From an uncultured delta proteobacterium (GTDB lineage: Bacteria > Desulfobacterota > Desulfobacteria > Desulfobacterales > JAFDCJ01): a stretch of DNA of 64,000 bases. Made by a program: the position numbers and the translations under genes. Within the stretch, counting starts at the first letter, position 1; every line of letters starts with the position of its first letter. Shown here piece by piece: positions 5,190-58,399 of the stretch. Location: positions 64,001 to 128,000 of the forward strand of contig CAVYNY010000008.1 of the NCBI GenBank assembly GCA_963769935.1, written 5' to 3'. The notes beneath the pieces were generated by a model. That model was not told the origin of the DNA and did no database searches. It was given only the letters and a program-made list of their open reading frames with translations.

Positions 5190-5260
5190 GGTTTCAGGTG
5201 TCAGATTTCAGGTGTCAGCCTGGCCGCTGGCCCGAAGAGTGGCCAGTTAGATCGAGAAAG
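5190..5260. repeat. GGTTTCAGGTGTCAG-family dispersed repeat
   Basis: Reverse-complement homolog of 16855-16913 and 32987-33045. Confidence 0.75.
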
Positions 5261-8380: not shown

Positions 8381-8472
8381 GCGGCTATTGTGATTTGTTT
8401 GAAATTTGTGATTTGTTATTTGAAATTGCACAAATCATGAACTTGTGCTCAGATTTAATTGGGAGGTAACCC

Positions 8473-10371: not shown

Positions 10372-10455
10372 AGGTTTCAGCCCGCCCTGGTGCGACATGA
10401 AGGTTTTTTTTCTGTCAGCCGCAGGAGATGCCGACAATGTTTTATTTTGCAGATT
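10372..10455. repeat. About 84-bp dispersed repeat; inverted copy at 32817-32899
   Basis: Manual alignment shows about 4 differences. Confidence 0.85.
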
Positions 10456-10693
10456 TATACAAAGTTAGGTCTGGGCCAGGGGTGTCAGCTGGCAGAGGAC
10501 AGCGGACCGAAGGTAAGAGGGTGAGAAGGTGCGAGGGTCAGAATATGGGGAAGTTGGGAAGATAAGAAGTTGAGAGGTTGGAAATTTTTCATTCCATACC
10601 ATCAACTCAATCAACTTAATCAACTCCATCATGTCTCTTCTTTCAGCTATCAACTACGATCTATGAACTATCAACTTTTTTGGGGAGGAAATC

Positions 10694-15379: not shown

Positions 15380-16450
15380 ATGGAAAAATCAAGCGGCAAA
15401 AATTACATGCTGTCGGCTTTGCGGCGGAAGCGTGCCGATCGGGTTCCGACGACCGTCCTGATAGGCCCTTACTGCTCCCGCCTAACACGATATAGCGTAA
15501 GGGAAATATTGACCGATGCCCGCAAAAGCGCAGAAGCCCATCTGGCTTTTCATGATCGGTTCATGCCGGACAGCCTGATCGTTTACAACGACATCTATCT
15601 TGAAGCGGAAGCTGTCGGCTGTGAGCTGGAATTTCCCGAGAACGGCATTTCGCATCCAAAGTGCGCCCTGCTCGGAGACAAGACAAAACTGGCCCGGCTA
15701 AAGGTTCCCGATCCTCGAAAAGACGGACGAATTCCCTATTTCATTGAAGTTTGTCAACGGGTTTCCGCACAGATTCGTAGGTCGACCGCCCTAGGTCTGG
15801 GACATTCCGGCCCATGGAATATTGCCATGCATCTCAGGGGTGCCGAAGCCCTTCTGATGGACACGGCAACAGATCCCTCCTTCATTCATGAATTGATGAA
15901 ATTCACTACCGAAGTTGTGCGAGCAGTGGGCGATGCATTAATTGAAGTCGGGTTCTCGCCTTCCTTGGGAGAGGCGGCAGCTTCCTGCAGTCTGATTTCA
16001 CCGCGCATCTACCAGGAATTTATCAAGCCCTATCATAAAGAACTCGGTCTCTATTTTAAGTCAAAGAAACGCTACATGTCGCTACATATTTGCGGCAAAA
16101 TCGATCCCATCATGGAAGATATAATCGAAACCGGGATTTTTCTCCTCAGTCTCGATGCCGTCTCATCGCTGCAAAAATGGACCCGCCTGGCGGGCCGCAA
16201 GGTTGTCACCATGGGCAATGTGCCGACAACTCTTTTCAGCAGCGGTACGCGATCTGAAATGGAGGCTTCGATCCGTGCCTGCATTGATACCGCGGCTGCA
16301 GATAGCGGTTATATTCTGGCATCCGGCTGTGAAATTCCATTCGATTCAACCGAAGACCGTATTGCTCATTTTTTTGAATACAGCCGCCAATACGGGCGCA
16401 AATTTATGGAAGGTTTAAATTCCAAATTCCAAGCACCAAATAACAAATAA
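15380..16450 (+). CDS. Uroporphyrinogen decarboxylase-family protein (MtaA/CmuA-like)
   Basis: EAEAVGC, GPWNIA, SLISP..Y.EF, LHICG, GNV, GYILASGCEI. Confidence 0.85.
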   Translation: MEKSSGKNYMLSALRRKRADRVPTTVLIGPYCSRLTRYSVREILTDARKSAEAHLAFHDRFMPDSLIVYNDIYLEAEAVGCELEFPENGISHPKCALLGDKTKLARLKVPDPRKDGRIPYFIEVCQRVSAQIRRSTALGLGHSGPWNIAMHLRGAEALLMDTATDPSFIHELMKFTTEVVRAVGDALIEVGFSPSLGEAAASCSLISPRIYQEFIKPYHKELGLYFKSKKRYMSLHICGKIDPIMEDIIETGIFLLSLDAVSSLQKWTRLAGRKVVTMGNVPTTLFSSGTRSEMEASIRACIDTAAADSGYILASGCEIPFDSTEDRIAHFFEYSRQYGRKFMEGLNSKFQAPNNK

Positions 16451-17090
16451 ATCCCAAAACACAATAGTAAAGATCCGGGTCCAGAGGGCCCGGCTTTGGT
16501 CCACCCCGGAGGGGTGAGATGGGTGATCACGTTTACCAGCAGTTTTCAGGTGTCAGGTGTCAGCAACTGAAGTCGACCCGCTGGGCCGGAGTCCCTCATG
16601 CAATGGACTTTCTTGCAACAGTGTTGATCTTCATTTGCAACCCAATCAGTGTTCAGGATTCAGAATTCGATTTTTACTGACACCTGAGACCTCATATGAA
16701 ACTTCATTAAATTCGATGCCATTTTTACGAAGTGTCTCACCGCCGAAAGCGCCAGAGCGCAGAGATTAATAAAAATTTTCTTTCTCGGCGTTCTCCCACC
16801 GGGGCGTAGGCCCTATGGGCCAGAGGCGGCGGGCTCTGCGGTGAACTATTATGTTTCTTTTTCGATCAGATTGGCCGCTTTTCAGGCCGGCGGATAGGCT
16901 GACACCTGAAACCATGAACAGATTTGGCCTATGGCAAAGCCAATCTCCTCTGACCTGGCCCACAGGACCAGGTTTGCAATTTTGGAATCAACGATCGGAA
17001 CCGGCCAAACCAATGGTGTCCCGTTTGGAATTTTGAATTTTGGGCATTGTAAATTATTTGGGATTTGTTAATTGGAATTTGTGATTTTAA
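16418..17090. repeat. Nested composite of several intergenic repeat families
   Basis: Outer AAATTCC-type arms, inner GGTGTCAG arms, nonamer arms and a 32-bp GTAG module. Confidence 0.75.
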
Positions 17091-17149
17091 TATTACAAAC
17101 CTTGAGAACCGATCCATGCATTTCATAAAAAAACTTTTTCCATGTTTCT

Positions 17150-28839: not shown

Positions 28840-29625
28840 TTACTTGAATCTGGAAAAATCAGGTTTGCGGCGCTCAAAAAAAGCCGTTAACGCCTCATCA
28901 CATTCGCCGGAATTCAGCCTTTCCGAAAACTGTTTTCTCTCTTCAGTCATAGTATCAACAATGGTTTGGGAAATGGATTTTTTGAGCAGCGCTTTGGTTA
29001 TGCGCACGGACGCCGGCGGCTGTTGGGCCAGGATTACGGCCTGGGCGAGGGCCTTATCGATATACTCCGAATCGGGATAAACAGCGTTTACCAATCCGAT
29101 TTCAAAAGCTTTGGCTGCCGAAAAAGCTTCGCCGAGCAGCAGTAATTCAGATGCCCGCTGGTGTCCGACCAATTTGGGCAACAGGAAACTGGATGCTGCC
29201 TCCGGGCAAAGCCCCAAAGCGACGAACGGCATGCGAAATTGCGCGCCTTCACCGGCATAAACCAGATCACAGTGAAGCAGCATGGTCGTACCCACACCCA
29301 CGGCCACCCCCCCGACAGCAGCCACGATGGGTTTTCTCGCCCGGCTGATGGCCGTTAAAAAATTGCTTACGTCTTTATTATCACCATCCTGACGAAAAGC
29401 TTGGAAATCTTTCAGATCATTGCCGGCAGTGAAACAATCCTGCGAACCGTGCAGAAAAATAACCCGGATATCGCTGTCCTGGTCCGCCCGGAAGATGGCA
29501 TCGGCCATGGCGGCGTACATAGCCCGGGTAAGGGCATTTTTCTTTTGCGGCCGGTTGATCCTGATTCGCAAAATCCGGTCTTGGGTCTCCGTCAATATAT
29601 CGCTAAATGTATCATCAGCAGTCAA
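28840..29625 (-). CDS. Enoyl-CoA hydratase/isomerase (crotonase fold)
   Basis: NRPQKKNAL, FTAGNDL, AVGVG, LGLCPEAAS. Confidence 0.92.
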   Translation of the reverse strand: MTADDTFSDILTETQDRILRIRINRPQKKNALTRAMYAAMADAIFRADQDSDIRVIFLHGSQDCFTAGNDLKDFQAFRQDGDNKDVSNFLTAISRARKPIVAAVGGVAVGVGTTMLLHCDLVYAGEGAQFRMPFVALGLCPEAASSFLLPKLVGHQRASELLLLGEAFSAAKAFEIGLVNAVYPDSEYIDKALAQAVILAQQPPASVRITKALLKKSISQTIVDTMTEERKQFSERLNSGECDEALTAFFERRKPDFSRFK

Positions 29626-29699
29626 TTTGACTCTCCATATGTTTAGTTGATTGAGTTGACTTGATTGATTGGTTGACTGGTTTTTAAGGAAGTAAAAAC

Positions 29700-30294
29700 C
29701 ATTTTATTCCCCCTCCCTCAATCCCTCCCGCAAGGGGAGGGAAGCCATACCGTTCCGGGCGGTTCAACTTTTAATTTATAAATTTCAATCCTGCATAGTT
29801 TTATCTTACCCTCCATCGACGAGAAGGTCTATGGGAGGGGGATAAGTTACTGAAGACATTTTTTCCGTATCACCTCCAAGACGCCTTCCATGTTTTCAAT
29901 TACTTCGTTGTCCCAAAACCTTAACACTGTAAACCCATTTTCAGCAAGAAATCTATCTCTTTTGTTATCTTTCTCCCTATTCATCTTATGCTGGCCACCG
30001 TCCAGTTCAATCACAATTCGTTTTTCAAAACTAACAAAATCTACAATAAGATTTTCTATAGGTTGTTGCCTCCGAAACTTAATTCCCTGAAGCTGCCTCG
30101 CTCTTAGCCTATTCCAGAGTAAAGATTCGACCGCGGTAGAATTTTTTCTTAACTTCTTAGAAAAATGCGTCAGTGCAACTTTCATTATTTTTGGGCCTGG
30201 CATAATTTATAGTCAAGTTACTTGTATAGCTTTAGTAGGAAGCAGTATTGCTTCCCTCCCCTGGCGGGAGGGATTGAGGGAGGGGGATAAAATG
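29700..30294. mobile_element. Putative DUF559 cassette bounded by about 50-bp terminal inverted palindromic repeats
   Basis: 29700-29750 and 30245-30294 are near-perfect reverse complements; a third, degenerate copy lies at 29805-29845. Confidence 0.6.
29847..30203 (-). CDS. DUF559 (Vsr-like PD-(D/E)xK) endonuclease domain protein
   Basis: LRKNST..E..LW, FRRQQPI, IVDF, IELDGGQH, RD..L...G..VLRF. Confidence 0.9.
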   Translation of the reverse strand: MPGPKIMKVALTHFSKKLRKNSTAVESLLWNRLRARQLQGIKFRRQQPIENLIVDFVSFEKRIVIELDGGQHKMNREKDNKRDRFLAENGFTVLRFWDNEVIENMEGVLEVIRKKCLQ

Positions 30295-30334
30295 AAAATC
30301 ACTCCTCTAATTTATTTTATTTGACAACCAGAAT

Positions 30335-31579
30335 TTATTCTTTCCTTTCAAAAACGGCCGCAATCCCCAAACCGCCGCCGCCGCAGATGCATTCCAGGCC
30401 GTAGCGCACCCCCCGCCGTTTCATCTCATGCAGCAAGGTCACCAGCACACGGGTACCGGTGCAGGCAATGGGATGCCCGAGGGATATGCCCGAGCCGTTG
30501 ACGTTAACCTTGCCGTAATCTTGCGGTCCGACTCCCATCTGCTTTAAATCGGCCAATACCTGAGCAGCGAATGCTTCCTGGATTTCGATCAGATCGATCT
30601 GTTCGATGGTGAGCCCCGCCGTGTGCAGCGCTTTTGCTACCGCTTTCGGTACAGTTTGGTAGGTTTTGCGGGGATCATCGCCGACCACGGCACAAGATCT
30701 GACAGCGGCCAGGGGTTCGATGCCCAGCTCAGCCGCCTTGACCGCACCGGCAACAACCACCGCCGCCGCTCCGTCGTTTTCCGTTGATGAATTTCCGGCC
30801 GTGCAGACCCCGCCCAGAACCGGTTTCAGCTTGGCCAATTTTTCCAGGGTCGTATCCGGACGCGGGTTTTCATCCCGCGCGATTACCACCGGATCGCCCT
30901 TGCGCTGCGGCAATGTGACTGGCAGTATTTCATCGTCAAACTTTCCCGCAGCAGCAGCGGCACAAGCTTTCTGATGGCTGGCCAGCGACCACTGGTCGCA
31001 GGCCTCCCGTGATATATTTTCTTCTTGGGCGGCTGTTTCGGCCCACGTCATCATGGCCGGCAGGATCCCGTAGCGTTGCTCGGGTTGGGACATGACCCGG
31101 GCGCGCTGAATTCGATCATAAAACGGCAGCCCCCAGATGGACAGATTTCCGTGCCCCCGGGGCAGGCCTTTGCTTCCCCCCACACCCCACTTGATGCTCC
31201 CCGGCAGGTAGAACTCGGCGTTGCTCATGCTTTCCACCCCGCCGGCCGCAATAATTTCCGCCTGATCCGATAGAATAAGGCCGGCCGCCAGGCGGACCAC
31301 ATCCAACCCCGTGCAGCAGCGCCGATCGATCGTCAAACCCGGAATGGAATCCGGCCAACCGGCTTTCAAAAGGGCCATGCGGGCTATATTTACATATTCG
31401 CCGTTCTGATAGGCTTGGCCCATGATGACTTCATCCACCCGGTCCGGCTGCATTCCGGCCCGTTTGACGGCCTCATTGAGGACCAGGCTTGCAAGGTCAT
31501 AGGCTTCGACATCTTTGAGGGCGCCCATGTATTTGCCCACCGGGGTCCGAACTGCACTGATGATGACGGGTTGATCCAT
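30335..31579 (-). CDS. Thiolase
   Basis: DRRCCTG, QEAFA, GISLGHPIACTG, CGGGGLG. Confidence 0.93.
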   Translation of the reverse strand: MDQPVIISAVRTPVGKYMGALKDVEAYDLASLVLNEAVKRAGMQPDRVDEVIMGQAYQNGEYVNIARMALLKAGWPDSIPGLTIDRRCCTGLDVVRLAAGLILSDQAEIIAAGGVESMSNAEFYLPGSIKWGVGGSKGLPRGHGNLSIWGLPFYDRIQRARVMSQPEQRYGILPAMMTWAETAAQEENISREACDQWSLASHQKACAAAAAGKFDDEILPVTLPQRKGDPVVIARDENPRPDTTLEKLAKLKPVLGGVCTAGNSSTENDGAAAVVVAGAVKAAELGIEPLAAVRSCAVVGDDPRKTYQTVPKAVAKALHTAGLTIEQIDLIEIQEAFAAQVLADLKQMGVGPQDYGKVNVNGSGISLGHPIACTGTRVLVTLLHEMKRRGVRYGLECICGGGGLGIAAVFERKE

Positions 31580-32745
31580 TTAATATCTCCATTCCCTCAA
31601 TAGATTCCTGGAAATCAGCATGCGCTGAATTTCACTGGTGCCTTCAAATATCCGGTACAGCCGGACATCCCTCAGATACATTTCGATCTGAGATTTTTTC
31701 AGATAGCCGGCATCCCCAAGAATATCCATGGCGCGATCGGCGATCCGGCTGGCCATTTCCGTACAAAAGAGTTTCACCATGGAAGCTTCATGGGTGACGT
31801 TGGTGCCGGTGTCCCGCAAACGGGCGGCGTGATGCAAGCCCTGGCGGGCGGTATAGATTTCAGTCGCCATGTCCGCTAAAGCAAACTGAGCCGCCTGCAA
31901 ATCATCTTTAGGCCGGCCGGATTCGATCAGCCGCTTGAGATGATCGGCACACATTTCCAAAAGCTTTTGAGAAGCTCCCAGGGCACAGGCACCCATGGTC
32001 AGGCGTCCTTTATCCAGAACGCGCATGGCCGTCTTAAACCCCTGCCCCACCATTTCCAGGCCGCCGATGACATTGTCTCTGGGAACCCGGCAGTTTCGAA
32101 AAACCAGCTCGTTGGTATGCGAGCCTTTCAACCCCATTTTTTCATCCGGCGGTCCCACAGTAAAGCCCGGGAAAGCCGTTTTCGAGGATAAAGGCGGTGA
32201 ACCCCTCCGCGAACGCGTTTTTTTTCATCGGTTACCGCAATGGTGGTGAAAACCTGCGCGCAATCCCCGTTGGTTATGAATTGTTTGGTGCCGTTCAAGA
32301 TCCAGTGATCGCCGGCTAGCACGGCCGCGGCTTTGATGTTGGCGGCGTCGGATCCGGCATCCGGTTCGGTCAAAGCAAAGGCAGCGGTCCATTCGCCGGA
32401 AGCAATGCGGGGAAGGTAGCGCTGCTTTTGATCGTCAGTCCCGTCAAACAGAATGCCCATGGACCCGATGCTGTTGCTGGTGCCGATCCGGGAGCGAAAG
32501 CAGGCGTTGGTGCGGGTCAATTCTTCATAAACCATGATCTCATCCACGGTCGACAAACCCAACCCGCCGTATTGCTTTGGAATCGAAAGACCAAAGAGAC
32601 CGAGCCCACGCATTTTTTCAACGATTTCTTCCGGAATTTCGCCTGTTTTCTCGACCTGGAGCGAAATGGGGTTCAGATCTTCCGCAACAAAGCGTTTGAC
32701 TTGATCCAGAATTACTTGCGGTTCGTTCGGATTTGAATCTTCCAT
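31580..32745 (-). CDS. Acyl-CoA dehydrogenase (short type), frameshifted near 32160-32210
   Basis: FALTEPDAGSD and KQFITNG in one frame; KMGLKGS and IFEGTSEIQR in another. Confidence 0.88.
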
Positions 32746-32816
32746 AATAAAAAAGTTATTCGTTATTGGTTATTGGCTATGAAATGCCTGAAATTGTAAA
32801 ATGACTAAAATTTATG

Positions 32817-33045
32817 AATCTGCAATATAAAACATTGTCGGCATCTCCTGCAGCTGACAGAAAAAAACCTTCAAGTCGCACCAGGGCGGGCTGAAACCTC
32901 GTATGAAACTTCCTTAATTTCGATGCCATTTTTACGAAGCTGTCTCACCGCTCGGAGGCTGCGGGCTCTGCGGTGAACTATTATGTTTCTTTTTCGATCA
33001 GACCGGCCGTTGTTTTGGCCGGCGGCGGCGCTGACACCTGAAACC
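32817..33045. repeat. Composite repeat: inverted copy of 10372-10455 joined to a shortened copy of 16678-16913
   Basis: Shared blocks tatgaaacttc..ttcgatgccatttttacgaag..tgtctcaccgc and gcgggctctgcggtgaactattatgtttctttttcgatcaga..gctgacacctgaaacc. Confidence 0.85.
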
Positions 33046-33065
33046 TTTTTTCTGTCTTCTGTTAT

Positions 33066-34850
33066 TCAAAACGCCTTCTCCGGCATGTCGACAATCTCGC
33101 GTCCTTCCCGCAGACATGTACTCAGAGCCGCCATCGTGTGCGGCAGCGTGACATCCGACAAAGTAGGTAGCCTGTAAAACCTTACCGCGATAGAAATCAC
33201 TTTTCCTGCCGTTTTCCATGGCCTTGGCGGCAACGGCGGCCATATCCAGCAGGCGCCAGGCCATGGTGACTTCACCAAAACTGATCAGGGCCGGATAGGT
33301 ATAAGACGCCCATTGCAAGGGATCGGATTGCATGCGCCGGCCGAGTTCTTCGGCGACGCTGTCAGCCGCGCGAGGGTCCGTCAAGGTCCTGGGCCTGGGT
33401 GCCGATCTGGGGCATATGGCTGTGATCCTGGAAAATTTCTCAATTTCAGACTTGAAGGCCAGAAACGGTGCGCCGCCGTTGATGCGCATCTTGCGCCCCA
33501 TCAGATCCATCGACTGAATTCCGTTGGTGCCCTCATACAGCGACATGATCTTGGCGTCCCGCAGGTACTGTTCAAGCGGATATTCCTTGCAGTAGCCATA
33601 TCCGCCCAGACACTGGATGGCAGTTTCACACACCCTGAAACCCATATCCGAGCAGTAAGCCTTGATGATCGGGCGTCATGAAATCGACCAGATTCTGATA
33701 GTGTTCTTTCTCCCCACCGGCGGGCAGTTCCAGAGCGTAGTCCTGCCAGAAGGCACCGGTATAGATCATGGAGCGCATCCCGTCCACCATGGCTTTCATC
33801 CATAGCAGCATCCGGCGTACGTCGGGGTGGTCGATGATCGGCACGTCTCCTGGTTTGCGTCCGGCAACATCCCTGCCCTGAGTTCGGGCCCGGCTATATT
33901 CCAGGGCATTCAGATAGGCTGTTGCGGCCAGGCTCATACCGCTGACACCGGTATTGATGCGGGCGGCATTCATCATCTGAAACATGTGCGCCAGCCCCAT
34001 ATTGGCTTCCCCGCACAAGTAGCCGATGCAGTCATCATGGGAGCCGAAGGCCAGGGAGCACGTCGGCGACGCGTGCAGGCCCAGCTTTTGTTCAACCGCC
34101 GTGCAGATCACATCATTGACGTCCCCCAGTGAGCCGTCGGCATTGACCCGCACTTTGGGGACGATAAACAGCGAGATCCCCTTGACCCCGGCCGGAGCAC
34201 CTTCGATGCGAGCCAGAACGAGATGCACGATATTATCGGCCAGATTGTGTTCGCCCCAGGAAATGAAGATTTTTGAGCCTTTAATTTTATAGTGGTCGCC
34301 CTCGGGACAGGCCATGGTTTGAAGCGCAGCCAGATTTGAGCCGGCATCCGGCTCCGTCAGGCACATGGTGCCCGCCCAGCTGCCGTTGAACATATTGGGT
34401 ATAAAGCGCTGTTTCTGTTCCTCGGTGCCGAAGCTTTCGATCAGATGCGCCGCGCCATGAGTCAGGCTGGGAGCCATGTTGAAGGCCTGGCAGGCCCCGT
34501 ACATCAGGTCGTTGACGACAATTCGCATCATGTTGCGGAAACCCCTGTCCCCCGTACTCGGGGTCGCGGGCGGCCGCCGTCCAACCGTCCTCGCCGTATT
34601 TCTTAAACGCATCTCTGAATTCAGGCGGGCAGACAACTTTACCGTTCTCAAATTTGACGCCATGCGCTTCACCGATTTCCTGCAAGGGATCCACCACTCC
34701 CTTGGCAAAACTAATCGCTTCGGTGACCAGCATGTCGAAGGTTTTTTCATTCAGGTCCTTATAGCGATCCAGGGAGCACAGGGCTCCATATTTGAGCTGT
34801 TCCTTTAAAATAAAAAAAATGTCTTTCTGGTTGATTTTAAAATGAGGCAT
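33066..34850 (-). CDS. Acyl-CoA dehydrogenase (long type), several frameshifts
   Basis: Pieces 34287-34850, 33626-34750, 32998-33645 and 33066-33278 carry GTMCLTEPDAGS, KIFIS and LYEGTNGIQ. Confidence 0.88.
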
Positions 34851-40339: not shown

Positions 40340-40987
40340 AAATCCCCCCCGACCCCCCTTTAGAAAAGGGGGGAGAAAGAAAAGCCCCAGCCTTCCTTAG
40401 AAACAGGTGGAAGGGAGAAATCAGCTTGGCCTCCTCTAGAAAAGTTCAGGTTTAAAAATATTGGCAACCATAGTTTAGCAAGTAGGGAAAAAGAGATTCC
40501 CGCTGCTAGCCTGTAAAAAAATGCCGAGCTGTTTACTGCTCATAATCTAAAACTCCGGATAGCACCGTTTCCCCCCTTTTTAAAGGGGGGTCAGGGGGGA
40601 TTTTCCAGATGCTTATATATCGTATCGACAACCTCCTCAATATTTTTGAGAGCATCATTATTAGAAAAGCGCAGTACCCTGAAGCCGAGATCGTTCAAAA
40701 ACTTGTCCCTTGCTTTATCCTTTGCGTGGTATTCGTTTGAATAATGCTGGCCGCCGTCTATTTCAACTATTAATTTTGCCGCAGGACAATAAAAATCTAC
40801 AATATATTCACCAATGTTTTTTTGCCTGTAAAATTGATATTGCTTAAGCTGCTTCCTCCTTATCTTTGACCAAAGGCGCCTTTCTGCATCGGTCATGTTT
40901 TTTCTGAGCTCTCTGGCCAATTGCTTGAGGTTTTTATTGTAGGGTAGCGTCGAAATCCCCCCGGCCCCCCTTTAGAAAAGGGGGGAG
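40340..40987. mobile_element. Second putative DUF559 cassette with a different palindromic repeat (AAATCCCCCC..CCCCCCTTTAGAAAAGGGGGGAG)
   Basis: Copies at 40340-40375, 40570-40603 (inverted, overlaps the stop codon) and 40953-40987. Confidence 0.6.
40591..40950 (-). CDS. DUF559 endonuclease domain protein; apparent start is ACG (otherwise TTG at 40920)
   Basis: (T)LPYNKNLKQLARELRKNMTDAE..LW, FYRQK.IG.YIVDFYC, VEIDGGQH, VLRFSN. Confidence 0.88.
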   Translation of the reverse strand, partial: TLPYNKNLKQLARELRKNMTDAERRLWSKIRRKQLKQYQFYRQKNIGEYIVDFYCPAAKLIVEIDGGQHYSNEYHAKDKARDKFLNDLGFRVLRFSNNDALKNIEEVVDTIYKHLENPP

Positions 40988-42893: not shown

Positions 42894-42985
42894 GGGTATT
42901 CTCCCTCCCCTTAGATTACTATCCTTTTCTCTCTAAAAATAGATAGCTGATGATGTGAAAAATATCTTCTAAGTGAATATCATGA

Positions 42986-43198
42986 AAATTCCAAGCACTA
43001 AAATCCAAATATCAAACAAATCCCAATGACACAAATTCAAAATTCCAAACAAAAACTTATTTTAAAGTTGTACCCAACGGTATCGTCACCGGTGTATCTA
43101 ATGCTGAGCGATGGGATCTTGCTTGGGTGTATGTTTAGGTCATTGACTATTGGAATTTGAGATTTTTTTGTGATTTGGTGCTTGAGATTTGAAATTTT
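42986..43198. repeat. Inverted heptamer arms (AAATTCC/AAATCCC family)
   Basis: aaattccaagcactaaaatccaaatatcaaac.. mirrored by ..gtgatttggtgcttgagatttgaaatttt. Confidence 0.75.
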
Positions 43199-50366: not shown

Positions 50367-50544
50367 GGTTTCAGGTGTCAGGAACTGAATGTCAAAAGAA
50401 AGAAAAAAGATCGCTATCCATGCGTGCCACCTTCTGAATTTTTAGATCCGTTCTGTAAACCAGGTTTGGGATTTCGAATTTTGTTCATTGTGATTTGTTT
50501 GGAATTTGTTGTTTGATATTTTCTAACTGCTGACACCTGAAACC
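50367..50544. repeat. MITE-like unit with 14-15-bp inverted ends GGTTTCAGGTGTCAG, enclosing a heptamer tract
   Basis: ggtttcaggtgtcag ... ctgacacctgaaacc. Confidence 0.7.
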
Positions 50545-54502: not shown

Positions 54503-54512
54503 CTTAAAGAGA

Positions 54513-54580
54513 AGGTTTCAGGTTTCAGCCCAGCCGCCGGCCGTTGTTTTGGCCGGCGGCTGGGCTGAAACCTGAAACCT
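54513..54580. terminator. Perfect 30-bp-stem hairpin between convergent genes, derived from the GGTTTCAG repeat family
   Basis: AGGTTTCAGGTTTCAGCCCAGCCGCCGGCC-GTTGTTTT-exact reverse complement; terminator role is inferred. Confidence 0.55.
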
Positions 54581-58225: not shown

Positions 58226-58399
58226 ATGATTAAAATCCGATTACATCTTTTGCTCATGTAACATTTAGCTGGTTTGGATCATTAGAATTTTGAATTTGAA
58301 TATTGTTTGTTATTTGTTTTTTGGTGCTTGGAATTTTCTACCTTAAAAGGGATGAACTCTACCTTGTCTAAAACAGTGTGAAGGCTACTTTCTATTAAT

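Follow-up and report, generated by a model that had tools for sequence, protein, structure and literature searches.

What is a small, AT-rich gene of the DUF559 family, lying between inverted repeats, doing in the middle of a run of beta-oxidation genes, and what are the repeats to it? The gene occupies 29847–30203 (minus strand) in the window, by which we mean the whole 64,000-nucleotide stretch analysed here (positions 64001–128000 of contig C8 of genome G000), and encodes a protein of 118 aa (Pfam DUF559, E=1.5e-39), or of 112 aa if it starts at M7 as most of its relatives do. Its GC content is 38.1%, compared to 51.1% for the window and 51.2% for the genome, and it is flanked on the same strand by a thiolase gene (30335–31579) and an enoyl-CoA hydratase (crotonase) gene (28840–29625), both host genes lying outside the cassette, so that the AT-rich interruption of a co-oriented gene run described in the original prediction is borne out. 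Both neighbours are metabolic and there is thus no adjacent transposase, methylase or antitoxin, again as predicted; the Pfam search of the cassette gene returned DUF559 only and no transposase domain, no terminator-like site was found in 29600–30400, and no C5-methyltransferase (PF00145) was found in this genome (96.7% complete) by a search that was positive in 9 of 14 genomes. Upstream of the thiolase gene, at 31580–34850, two acyl-CoA dehydrogenase-like genes each seem to be broken into several ORFs, by frameshifts or errors of assembly.

The near-perfect inverted repeats of about 50 bp that had been predicted around the gene are present as two arms of 48 nt (29703–29750 and 30245–30292), 92% complementary and spaced 494 nt apart, with outer ends CATTTTAT and ATAAAATG at 29700 and 30294. 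Each contains the expected internal hairpin, of 8 bp and about -9 kcal/mol as DNA (ViennaRNA, a value covering the hairpin only). The 34-nt core of the arms is intact only at these two places in the 7.99 Mb genome, the two remaining copies being degenerate (6–7 mismatches) and on other contigs, and the arms are therefore not a chance pairing. No clean target-site duplication was found at the ends of the cassette.

These repeats were initially described as palindromic, which is accurate as to the inverted hairpins but misses their main feature, a third, mirrored tract. The purine strand of each arm reads as a pyrimidine arm, a loop, a purine arm, a 3-nt linker and a purine tail that mirrors the stem. 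In the outer downstream repeat (29700–29751) this is the minus strand, so that in plus-strand reading the tail CCCCCTCCCT (29709–29718) comes first, followed by linker CAA, stem 29722–29729, a 5-nt loop and stem 29735–29742; in the outer upstream repeat (30245–30294, plus strand) the order is stem 30253–30260, loop, stem 30266–30273, linker TTG and purine tail 30277–30286. Both tails are directed away from the gene, and both copies pass the class II test (pyrimidine arm, loop, complementary purine arm, short linker and a tail obeying the G-G, A-A and T-A rules). By their sequence architecture the window repeats are thus members of the BoxC/PIT/TM class of class II intrastrand-triplex repeats, with the limit that, judged by eye, their purine arm GGGAGGGA and tail AGGGAGGGGG depart from the strict TM(ECO) consensus CCCTCNCCC-N3-6-GGGNGAGGG-N3-GGGNGAGGG.

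Hairpins near DUF559 genes were picked without regard to the tail, and tails were then shuffled among loci 1000 times. Of the 158 copies found next to DUF559 genes, 128 had a tail that mirrored its stem perfectly under the three pairing rules, compared to a shuffled mean of 21 and maximum of 36, these 158 being copies rather than independent events since related loci share repeat types. The position of A differs by stem type and the tail tracks it, the tail base opposite a stem A being A in 137 cases, T in 77, G in 22 and C in 2. We also considered a pyrimidine-motif triplex on the C-rich strand, which is disfavoured because on the purine strand T is frequent opposite stem A (77/238). The loop on the purine strand is conserved, commonly TTGAC, TTGAT or CTTGC. 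Such covariation is evolutionary evidence for selection on an intrastrand purine-motif DNA triplex. Oligonucleotides of the E. coli TMs fold into a triplex; Holder et al. report in the same work no in vivo protection matching a stable triplex and state that mobility functions were never found near TMs (PMC4666352).

In relatives (G002, G019) this repeat also forms solo doublets, in which a copy with a TTG linker is joined to a copy with a CCG linker, tails outward, just as type A is described as paired with type B in the E. coli TM doublets (PMC4666352), and an intact doublet-gene-doublet arrangement is found in Sphingomonas. The closest homologue of the window protein (82% identical) is encoded on a metagenome contig, L086, in which the inner downstream repeat is intact. 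The element at about 29808–29842 (plus strand), whose tail points toward the DUF559 stop codon, is homologous to and aligns with that repeat; the original prediction was therefore correct that a decayed element abuts the stop codon, but it is an inner-type repeat of the same class rather than one more outer arm. On the other side, an 8-nt stretch at 30238–30245 (minus strand; CTGCTTCC on the gene strand) is possibly the stub of a lost inner upstream repeat, as suggested by the doublets in relatives, although it is too short for certainty. The window is the sole locus of 90 compared in which the nearest detected copies point outward on both sides, an arrangement that loci in Deinococcus and Synechocystis resemble. 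The best reading of the window locus is as a doublet-gene-doublet remnant whose inner repeats have decayed or been lost, leaving the outer ones, and the insertion looks old, partly decayed and not active. The repeats do flank the gene as first described, but they are the outer pair, whereas the usual ends are inner copies with tails directed inward (the nearest copies in 60 of the 90 loci).

The pool from which these 90 loci derive comprised loci of the genus, 29 of 85 phylum matches, the 80 best among 556 metagenome matches, one genome-contig locus (the only one given by a single-protein scan of genome contigs) and E. coli ycjD; 119 loci had a match of at least 80 aa, dereplication at 90% brought these down to 111, and 90 of them were flanked by 250 bp on each side. 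Among these, the motif lies within 250 bp of DUF559 in 88 and on both sides in 65, and its density is 195 in 45 kb near DUF559 compared to 20 in 174 kb far from it, which confirms the enrichment looked for as a check on the original prediction. A detector based on the purine rule gave 85/90 on any side, 61/90 on both sides and 57/90 with inward tails, and fired on 0.17% of shuffled flanks; as loci and genomes are related, p-values for such comparisons are overstated. Six further DUF559 loci, from genomes missing the repeat pattern, all have triplex motifs, the majority of them belonging to the second repeat type. Y1 transposases and GIY-YIG proteins were also considered as partners of the repeats in repeat-rich genomes and were rejected, motif flanks being found at none of 30 Y1_Tnp loci (scored from 37 matches) and at none of 4 short GIY-YIG loci (the shorter-frame ones of 8 matches).

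Outside the phylum, six of seven plasmid-collection loci (chosen from 29) pass the detector, in Deinococcus, Synechocystis, Azospirillum, Sinorhizobium, Sphingomonas and Photobacterium; the seventh, on a Pseudanabaena plasmid, fails it, and similar repeats are visible there. The linkage holds across several phyla and across proteins ~40–45% identical while the sequence of the repeat changes. Upstream and downstream stem patterns match in just 16 of 44 loci, shuffling giving a mean of 5, so that strict cognate sequence specificity is weak, and repeat type follows the DUF559 protein tree loosely; as 63 of the 108 inner branches of that tree are unresolved, we make no formal claim of co-evolution. 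The co-occurrence of DUF559 and the triplex repeat across so many bacteria suggests that the enzyme is likely to be the missing partner that spreads the repeats.

The window holds a second cassette at 40341–40986 (minus strand), with a gene at about 40597–40950 from another DUF559 clade (42% identical) and repeats of its own poly-C/poly-G type at 40341–40374, 40571–40601 and 40954–40986. Its first codon is ACG where relatives have GTG or TTG, hence the start may be damaged. Elsewhere in this genome we observed solo or decayed triplex-type repeats at C9:8657–8736 (a decayed doublet of the two types), C11:465372, C11:493056, C21:3660 and C35:15627. Two other dispersed repeat families were seen in the window. 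One is a low-complexity family, AAAT(T)CCAAAT/ATTTG, unrelated to the triplex repeat and forming inverted pairs at 8387–8427, 16417–16471, 17023–17091, 42982–43197, 50464–50521 and 58272–58338; the other is a MITE-like family, GCTGA(C/A)ACCTGAAACC with GGCCGGCGG hairpins, whose copies are 82–100% alike (5203–5260, 10372–10459, 16684–16914, 32813–33047 and 54512–54580).

At the level of whole genomes, the repeat pattern was found in 49 of 55 DUF559-positive compared to 75 of 195 DUF559-negative genomes among 250 of the phylum, and at least 10 matches in 34/55 compared to 34/195, counts that take in overlapping duplicates and the gene's own flanks and come from mostly fragmented genomes whose kin are not independent. 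At least 30 matches were present in 12 of the 195 negative genomes; of five repeat-rich negatives examined, two (G055 and G204) hold pieces of DUF559 at an assembly gap or contig end and no DUF559 was seen in three (G195, G066 and G261). G019 has 248 matches to the repeat class of the window cassette and only a DUF559 of the other clade. The genome of the window itself has two DUF559 genes and only 11 motifs in 8 Mb, five of them at the two genes. The idea of a minimal mobile or repeat-propagating unit is favoured in part, as repeats are denser near DUF559 and the gene is not fixed, but this genome gave no sign of current mobility or repeat amplification.

In E. coli, the DUF559 gene ycjD is present in 3378 of 5426 genomes, nearly always single and at one place, a site described as otherwise occupied by eefRABCD (PMC12817139). 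Downstream of ycjD, 168 nt away, is the published TM no. 9, which is present in the printed sequence and escaped our detector because of its mismatch; neither ycjD nor the word 'endonuclease' is mentioned in the main text of PMC4666352. We counted 23 TMs in the ycjD-positive K-12 and 1, 7 and 7 in three ycjD-less strains, a comparison of four genomes in which the strains were chosen for missing one doublet and the counts are biased low. At the one site where a filled and an empty allele were compared, hrpB-mrcB, the empty allele differs by ~10 unrelated bases and has no clean junction or duplication. In L222 (E. coli O145) the IS110-family element ISEc20 lies at this site in place of the first TM of the doublet, which is missing, and IS110 elements may thus target such repeats.

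The predicted structure of the window protein (pLDDT 82) matches 3HRL (Z 14.1), I-Bth0305I (Z 11.9) and Vsr bound to DNA (Z 10.7). None of the residues E26, D55, H72, D79 and D83 varies among 23 close homologues, and the spacing of D55 and H72 equals that of D196 and H213 in I-Bth0305I (PMC3239194), giving, by spacing and conservation rather than residue-level superposition, a Vsr-like catalytic domain with the conserved E, D, H and D of the EDxHD group. Weak PDB sequence matches to unrelated proteins (E 0.17–1.3) were taken as chance. The protein is a predicted Vsr-fold nickase. With dN/dS of about 0.13 against L086, its gene is under purifying selection.

Among 22 relatives in the genus, 13 have the orthologous thiolase gene and 12 of these have sequence downstream of it, none of which (0/12) contains DUF559; what follows the thiolase gene is unrelated sequence, another thiolase gene or an interval of only 149 bp (G021), and a check for syntenic fixation accordingly showed the gene not to be fixed. 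At the same intergenic position downstream of the thiolase gene in three relatives, L017, L018 and L021, we noted another inverted-repeat element, CACCGCAGAG-CGCAAAGG-CGCAGAG, the site evidently gathering unrelated repeats. L086 carries DUF559 at this thiolase site too, again followed downstream by the same doublet, and L092 has the gene and that doublet at a different site. The thiolase of L086 clusters with those of G013 and G015, both without the DUF559 gene. Compared with L086, pS is lower for the gene than for the thiolase (0.48 vs 0.66), as are third-position differences (25/89 vs 156/331, p=0.0016), which hinted at recent re-insertion by homing; this is unsupported at fourfold sites (15/27 vs 109/183, p=0.68), and no gradient of co-conversion was found along the thiolase gene. 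Since divergence at fourfold sites is equal, an old insertion with subsequent losses fits as well as re-insertion.

G053, G123 and G206 carry a repeat-gene-repeat unit inserted in frame into the same loop of a DUF1156 protein; the loop is empty in G263, retains one repeat in G120 and is short and unrelated in G059. We also observed DUF559 cassettes in or beside DUF1156 genes in L244 (a Synechocystis plasmid), L045, L048 and L063, in two phyla, and one, read from the translation of L061, in frame in an apparent type I restriction specificity subunit. In the second clade, G001, G007 and G019 carry the gene after another thiolase gene, where G016 has only repeat remnants.

Three other explanations for these observations bear weighing. 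An autonomous mobile element, the strong form of the original prediction, in which the cassette would move by its own transposition or homing and end at the outer arms (29700 and 30294), would account for the repeat-bounded in-frame insertions, for the many different neighbour genes around close homologues, for as many as six DUF559 matches in one genome (G045) and for the occupied thiolase site in L086, a contig with a thiolase that clusters with those of gene-less genomes; the same fold, moreover, acts as a homing endonuclease in I-Bth0305I. We nevertheless think it unlikely, as the usual ends are the inward-tailed inner copies and not the outer ones, the equal fourfold divergence of gene and thiolase fits old vertical descent with losses, ycjD sits at one place in almost all of the positive E. 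coli genomes, neither the window ends nor the E. coli filled/empty pair has a clean target duplication, and matches are rare on plasmids (29 of 72,556 records) and phages (1 of 50,697). We give a similarly low weight to DUF559 being a passenger, a cargo captured once between two copies of a repeat that spreads by other means, either an enzyme acting in trans or triplex-induced stalling followed by recombination. Repeat-rich genomes without DUF559 exist, the loose agreement of repeat type with a poorly resolved protein tree is what a passenger might leave, and Holder et al. associate instability with TM sites and refer to the blocking of polymerase in vitro (PMC4666352). A gene captured once is hard to reconcile, however, with linkage kept across divergent proteins and several phyla while the repeats change, with the unflanked state of both other candidate enzyme families (0/34), or with purifying selection and the retention of predicted catalytic residues.

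The least probable of the three is a host repair enzyme, a T:G mismatch nickase of Vsr type or an SOS nuclease, beside which the repeats would serve as a ribosome-binding tail, mRNA stabiliser or terminator. The Vsr fold is in its favour, the purine tail often stops just ahead of the start of the gene match, and the DUF559 protein VsrA of Caulobacter, proposed to be Vsr-like, is needed for an SOS response in a cytosine-methyltransferase mutant (PMC12907096), the single in vivo study of a DUF559 protein that we came across. Against it stand the negative searches for a C5-methyltransferase and a terminator in this genome and locus; the T-opposite-A triads, which indicate a purine motif that cannot form in RNA according to Holder et al., who also cite PIT elements as having neither promoter nor terminator activity (PMC4666352); and the solo repeats and in-frame insertions, which a housekeeping role leaves unexplained.

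We regard as probable a unit resembling REPIN-RAYT systems, in which a predicted Vsr-fold nickase binds and cuts its folded, flanking BoxC-class repeats and host repair copies the doublets or, rarely, the cassette. The purine strand would fold into a hairpin with a reverse-Hoogsteen tail when transiently single-stranded in replication or transcription, and the enzyme would recognise the folded repeat with its conserved loop and nick it. Recombination or template-switching repair could then duplicate repeat doublets without a target-site duplication, while the whole cassette, in its full form a doublet-gene-doublet, would be copied to new sites only rarely. We infer every step here, from folding in vivo through to cutting. 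A stronger version, that DUF559 cassettes make up a novel kind of selfish element with intrastrand-triplex ends, in which the lone Vsr-fold nuclease recognises and cuts the triplex and moves both the cassette and non-autonomous BoxC repeats, is one we hold only tentatively and somewhat doubt; if true, it would mean that nature has an enzyme acting on a DNA triplex, and it would say where a repeat family that has lacked an explanation since the 1990s came from. To our knowledge, BoxC/PIT/TM repeats have been on record since that time without a partner protein, and the pairing gives them a candidate enzyme that is present in E. coli K-12 as ycjD. A full-text search, lying mostly outside the subscription literature, returned no work that connects BoxC or triplex repeats with DUF559 or ycjD. 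Each partner is known separately, and the novelty rests on an action of the enzyme on the repeat that we infer, and were DUF559 merely cargo it would shrink to a variant within a known repeat class. The window locus is a decayed example, and other loci are better test material.

The proposed unit can be set beside several known systems. It shares with Vsr and Caulobacter VsrA (PMC12907096) the fold and a predicted nickase active site, but differs from very-short-patch repair in having no partner cytosine methyltransferase found in the genome and in its frame of triplex repeats. With the EDxHD homing endonucleases (I-Bth0305I, PDB 3R3P; PMC3239194) it has in common the catalytic fold, the D-H spacing and the context of a selfish element, whereas the window gene is free-standing, intergenic and only 118 aa long, with no intron or intein and no N-terminal DNA-binding region, and has structured repeats as its ends. 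An IS element or MITE donor would be expected to show a DDE, HUH, serine or DEDD transposase, of which the cassette gene has no domain, and precise ends or a target duplication, the latter not seen in clean form at the ends of the cassette or in the single E. coli pair. The analogy with RAYT/REP made in the original prediction fits: as in REPIN-RAYT systems or REPtrons (10.1101/2021.07.10.451892; PMC3733652), a small, low-copy enzyme gene is flanked by structured repeats, which are found as solo doublets too, is patchily distributed and mostly chromosomal, and tends to be accompanied by more repeats where it is present. Dispersed doublets are seen in G002 and G019 and, as one decayed example on contig C9, in the genome of the window, and ycjD has its single place in E. 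coli. Unlike those systems, the enzyme has a Vsr-like PD-(D/E)xK fold and not that of an HUH tyrosine (Y1) transposase, the repeat is of the three-tract triplex type rather than a palindromic REP tagged by a GTAG or CGTC foot, and the cassette as a whole is also found in frame within other genes. The closest likeness in the repeats is to BoxC/PIT/TM(ECO), from which the window copies differ in stem sequence and in departing from the strict consensus, and with which they share the succession of pyrimidine arm, short loop, purine arm, 3-nt linker and purine or T tail, an intergenic and strain-variable distribution, inverted doublets combining TTA-type and CCG-type linkers (PMC4666352), and, in the case of TM no. 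9, a position adjoining a DUF559 gene, the ycjD of E. coli.
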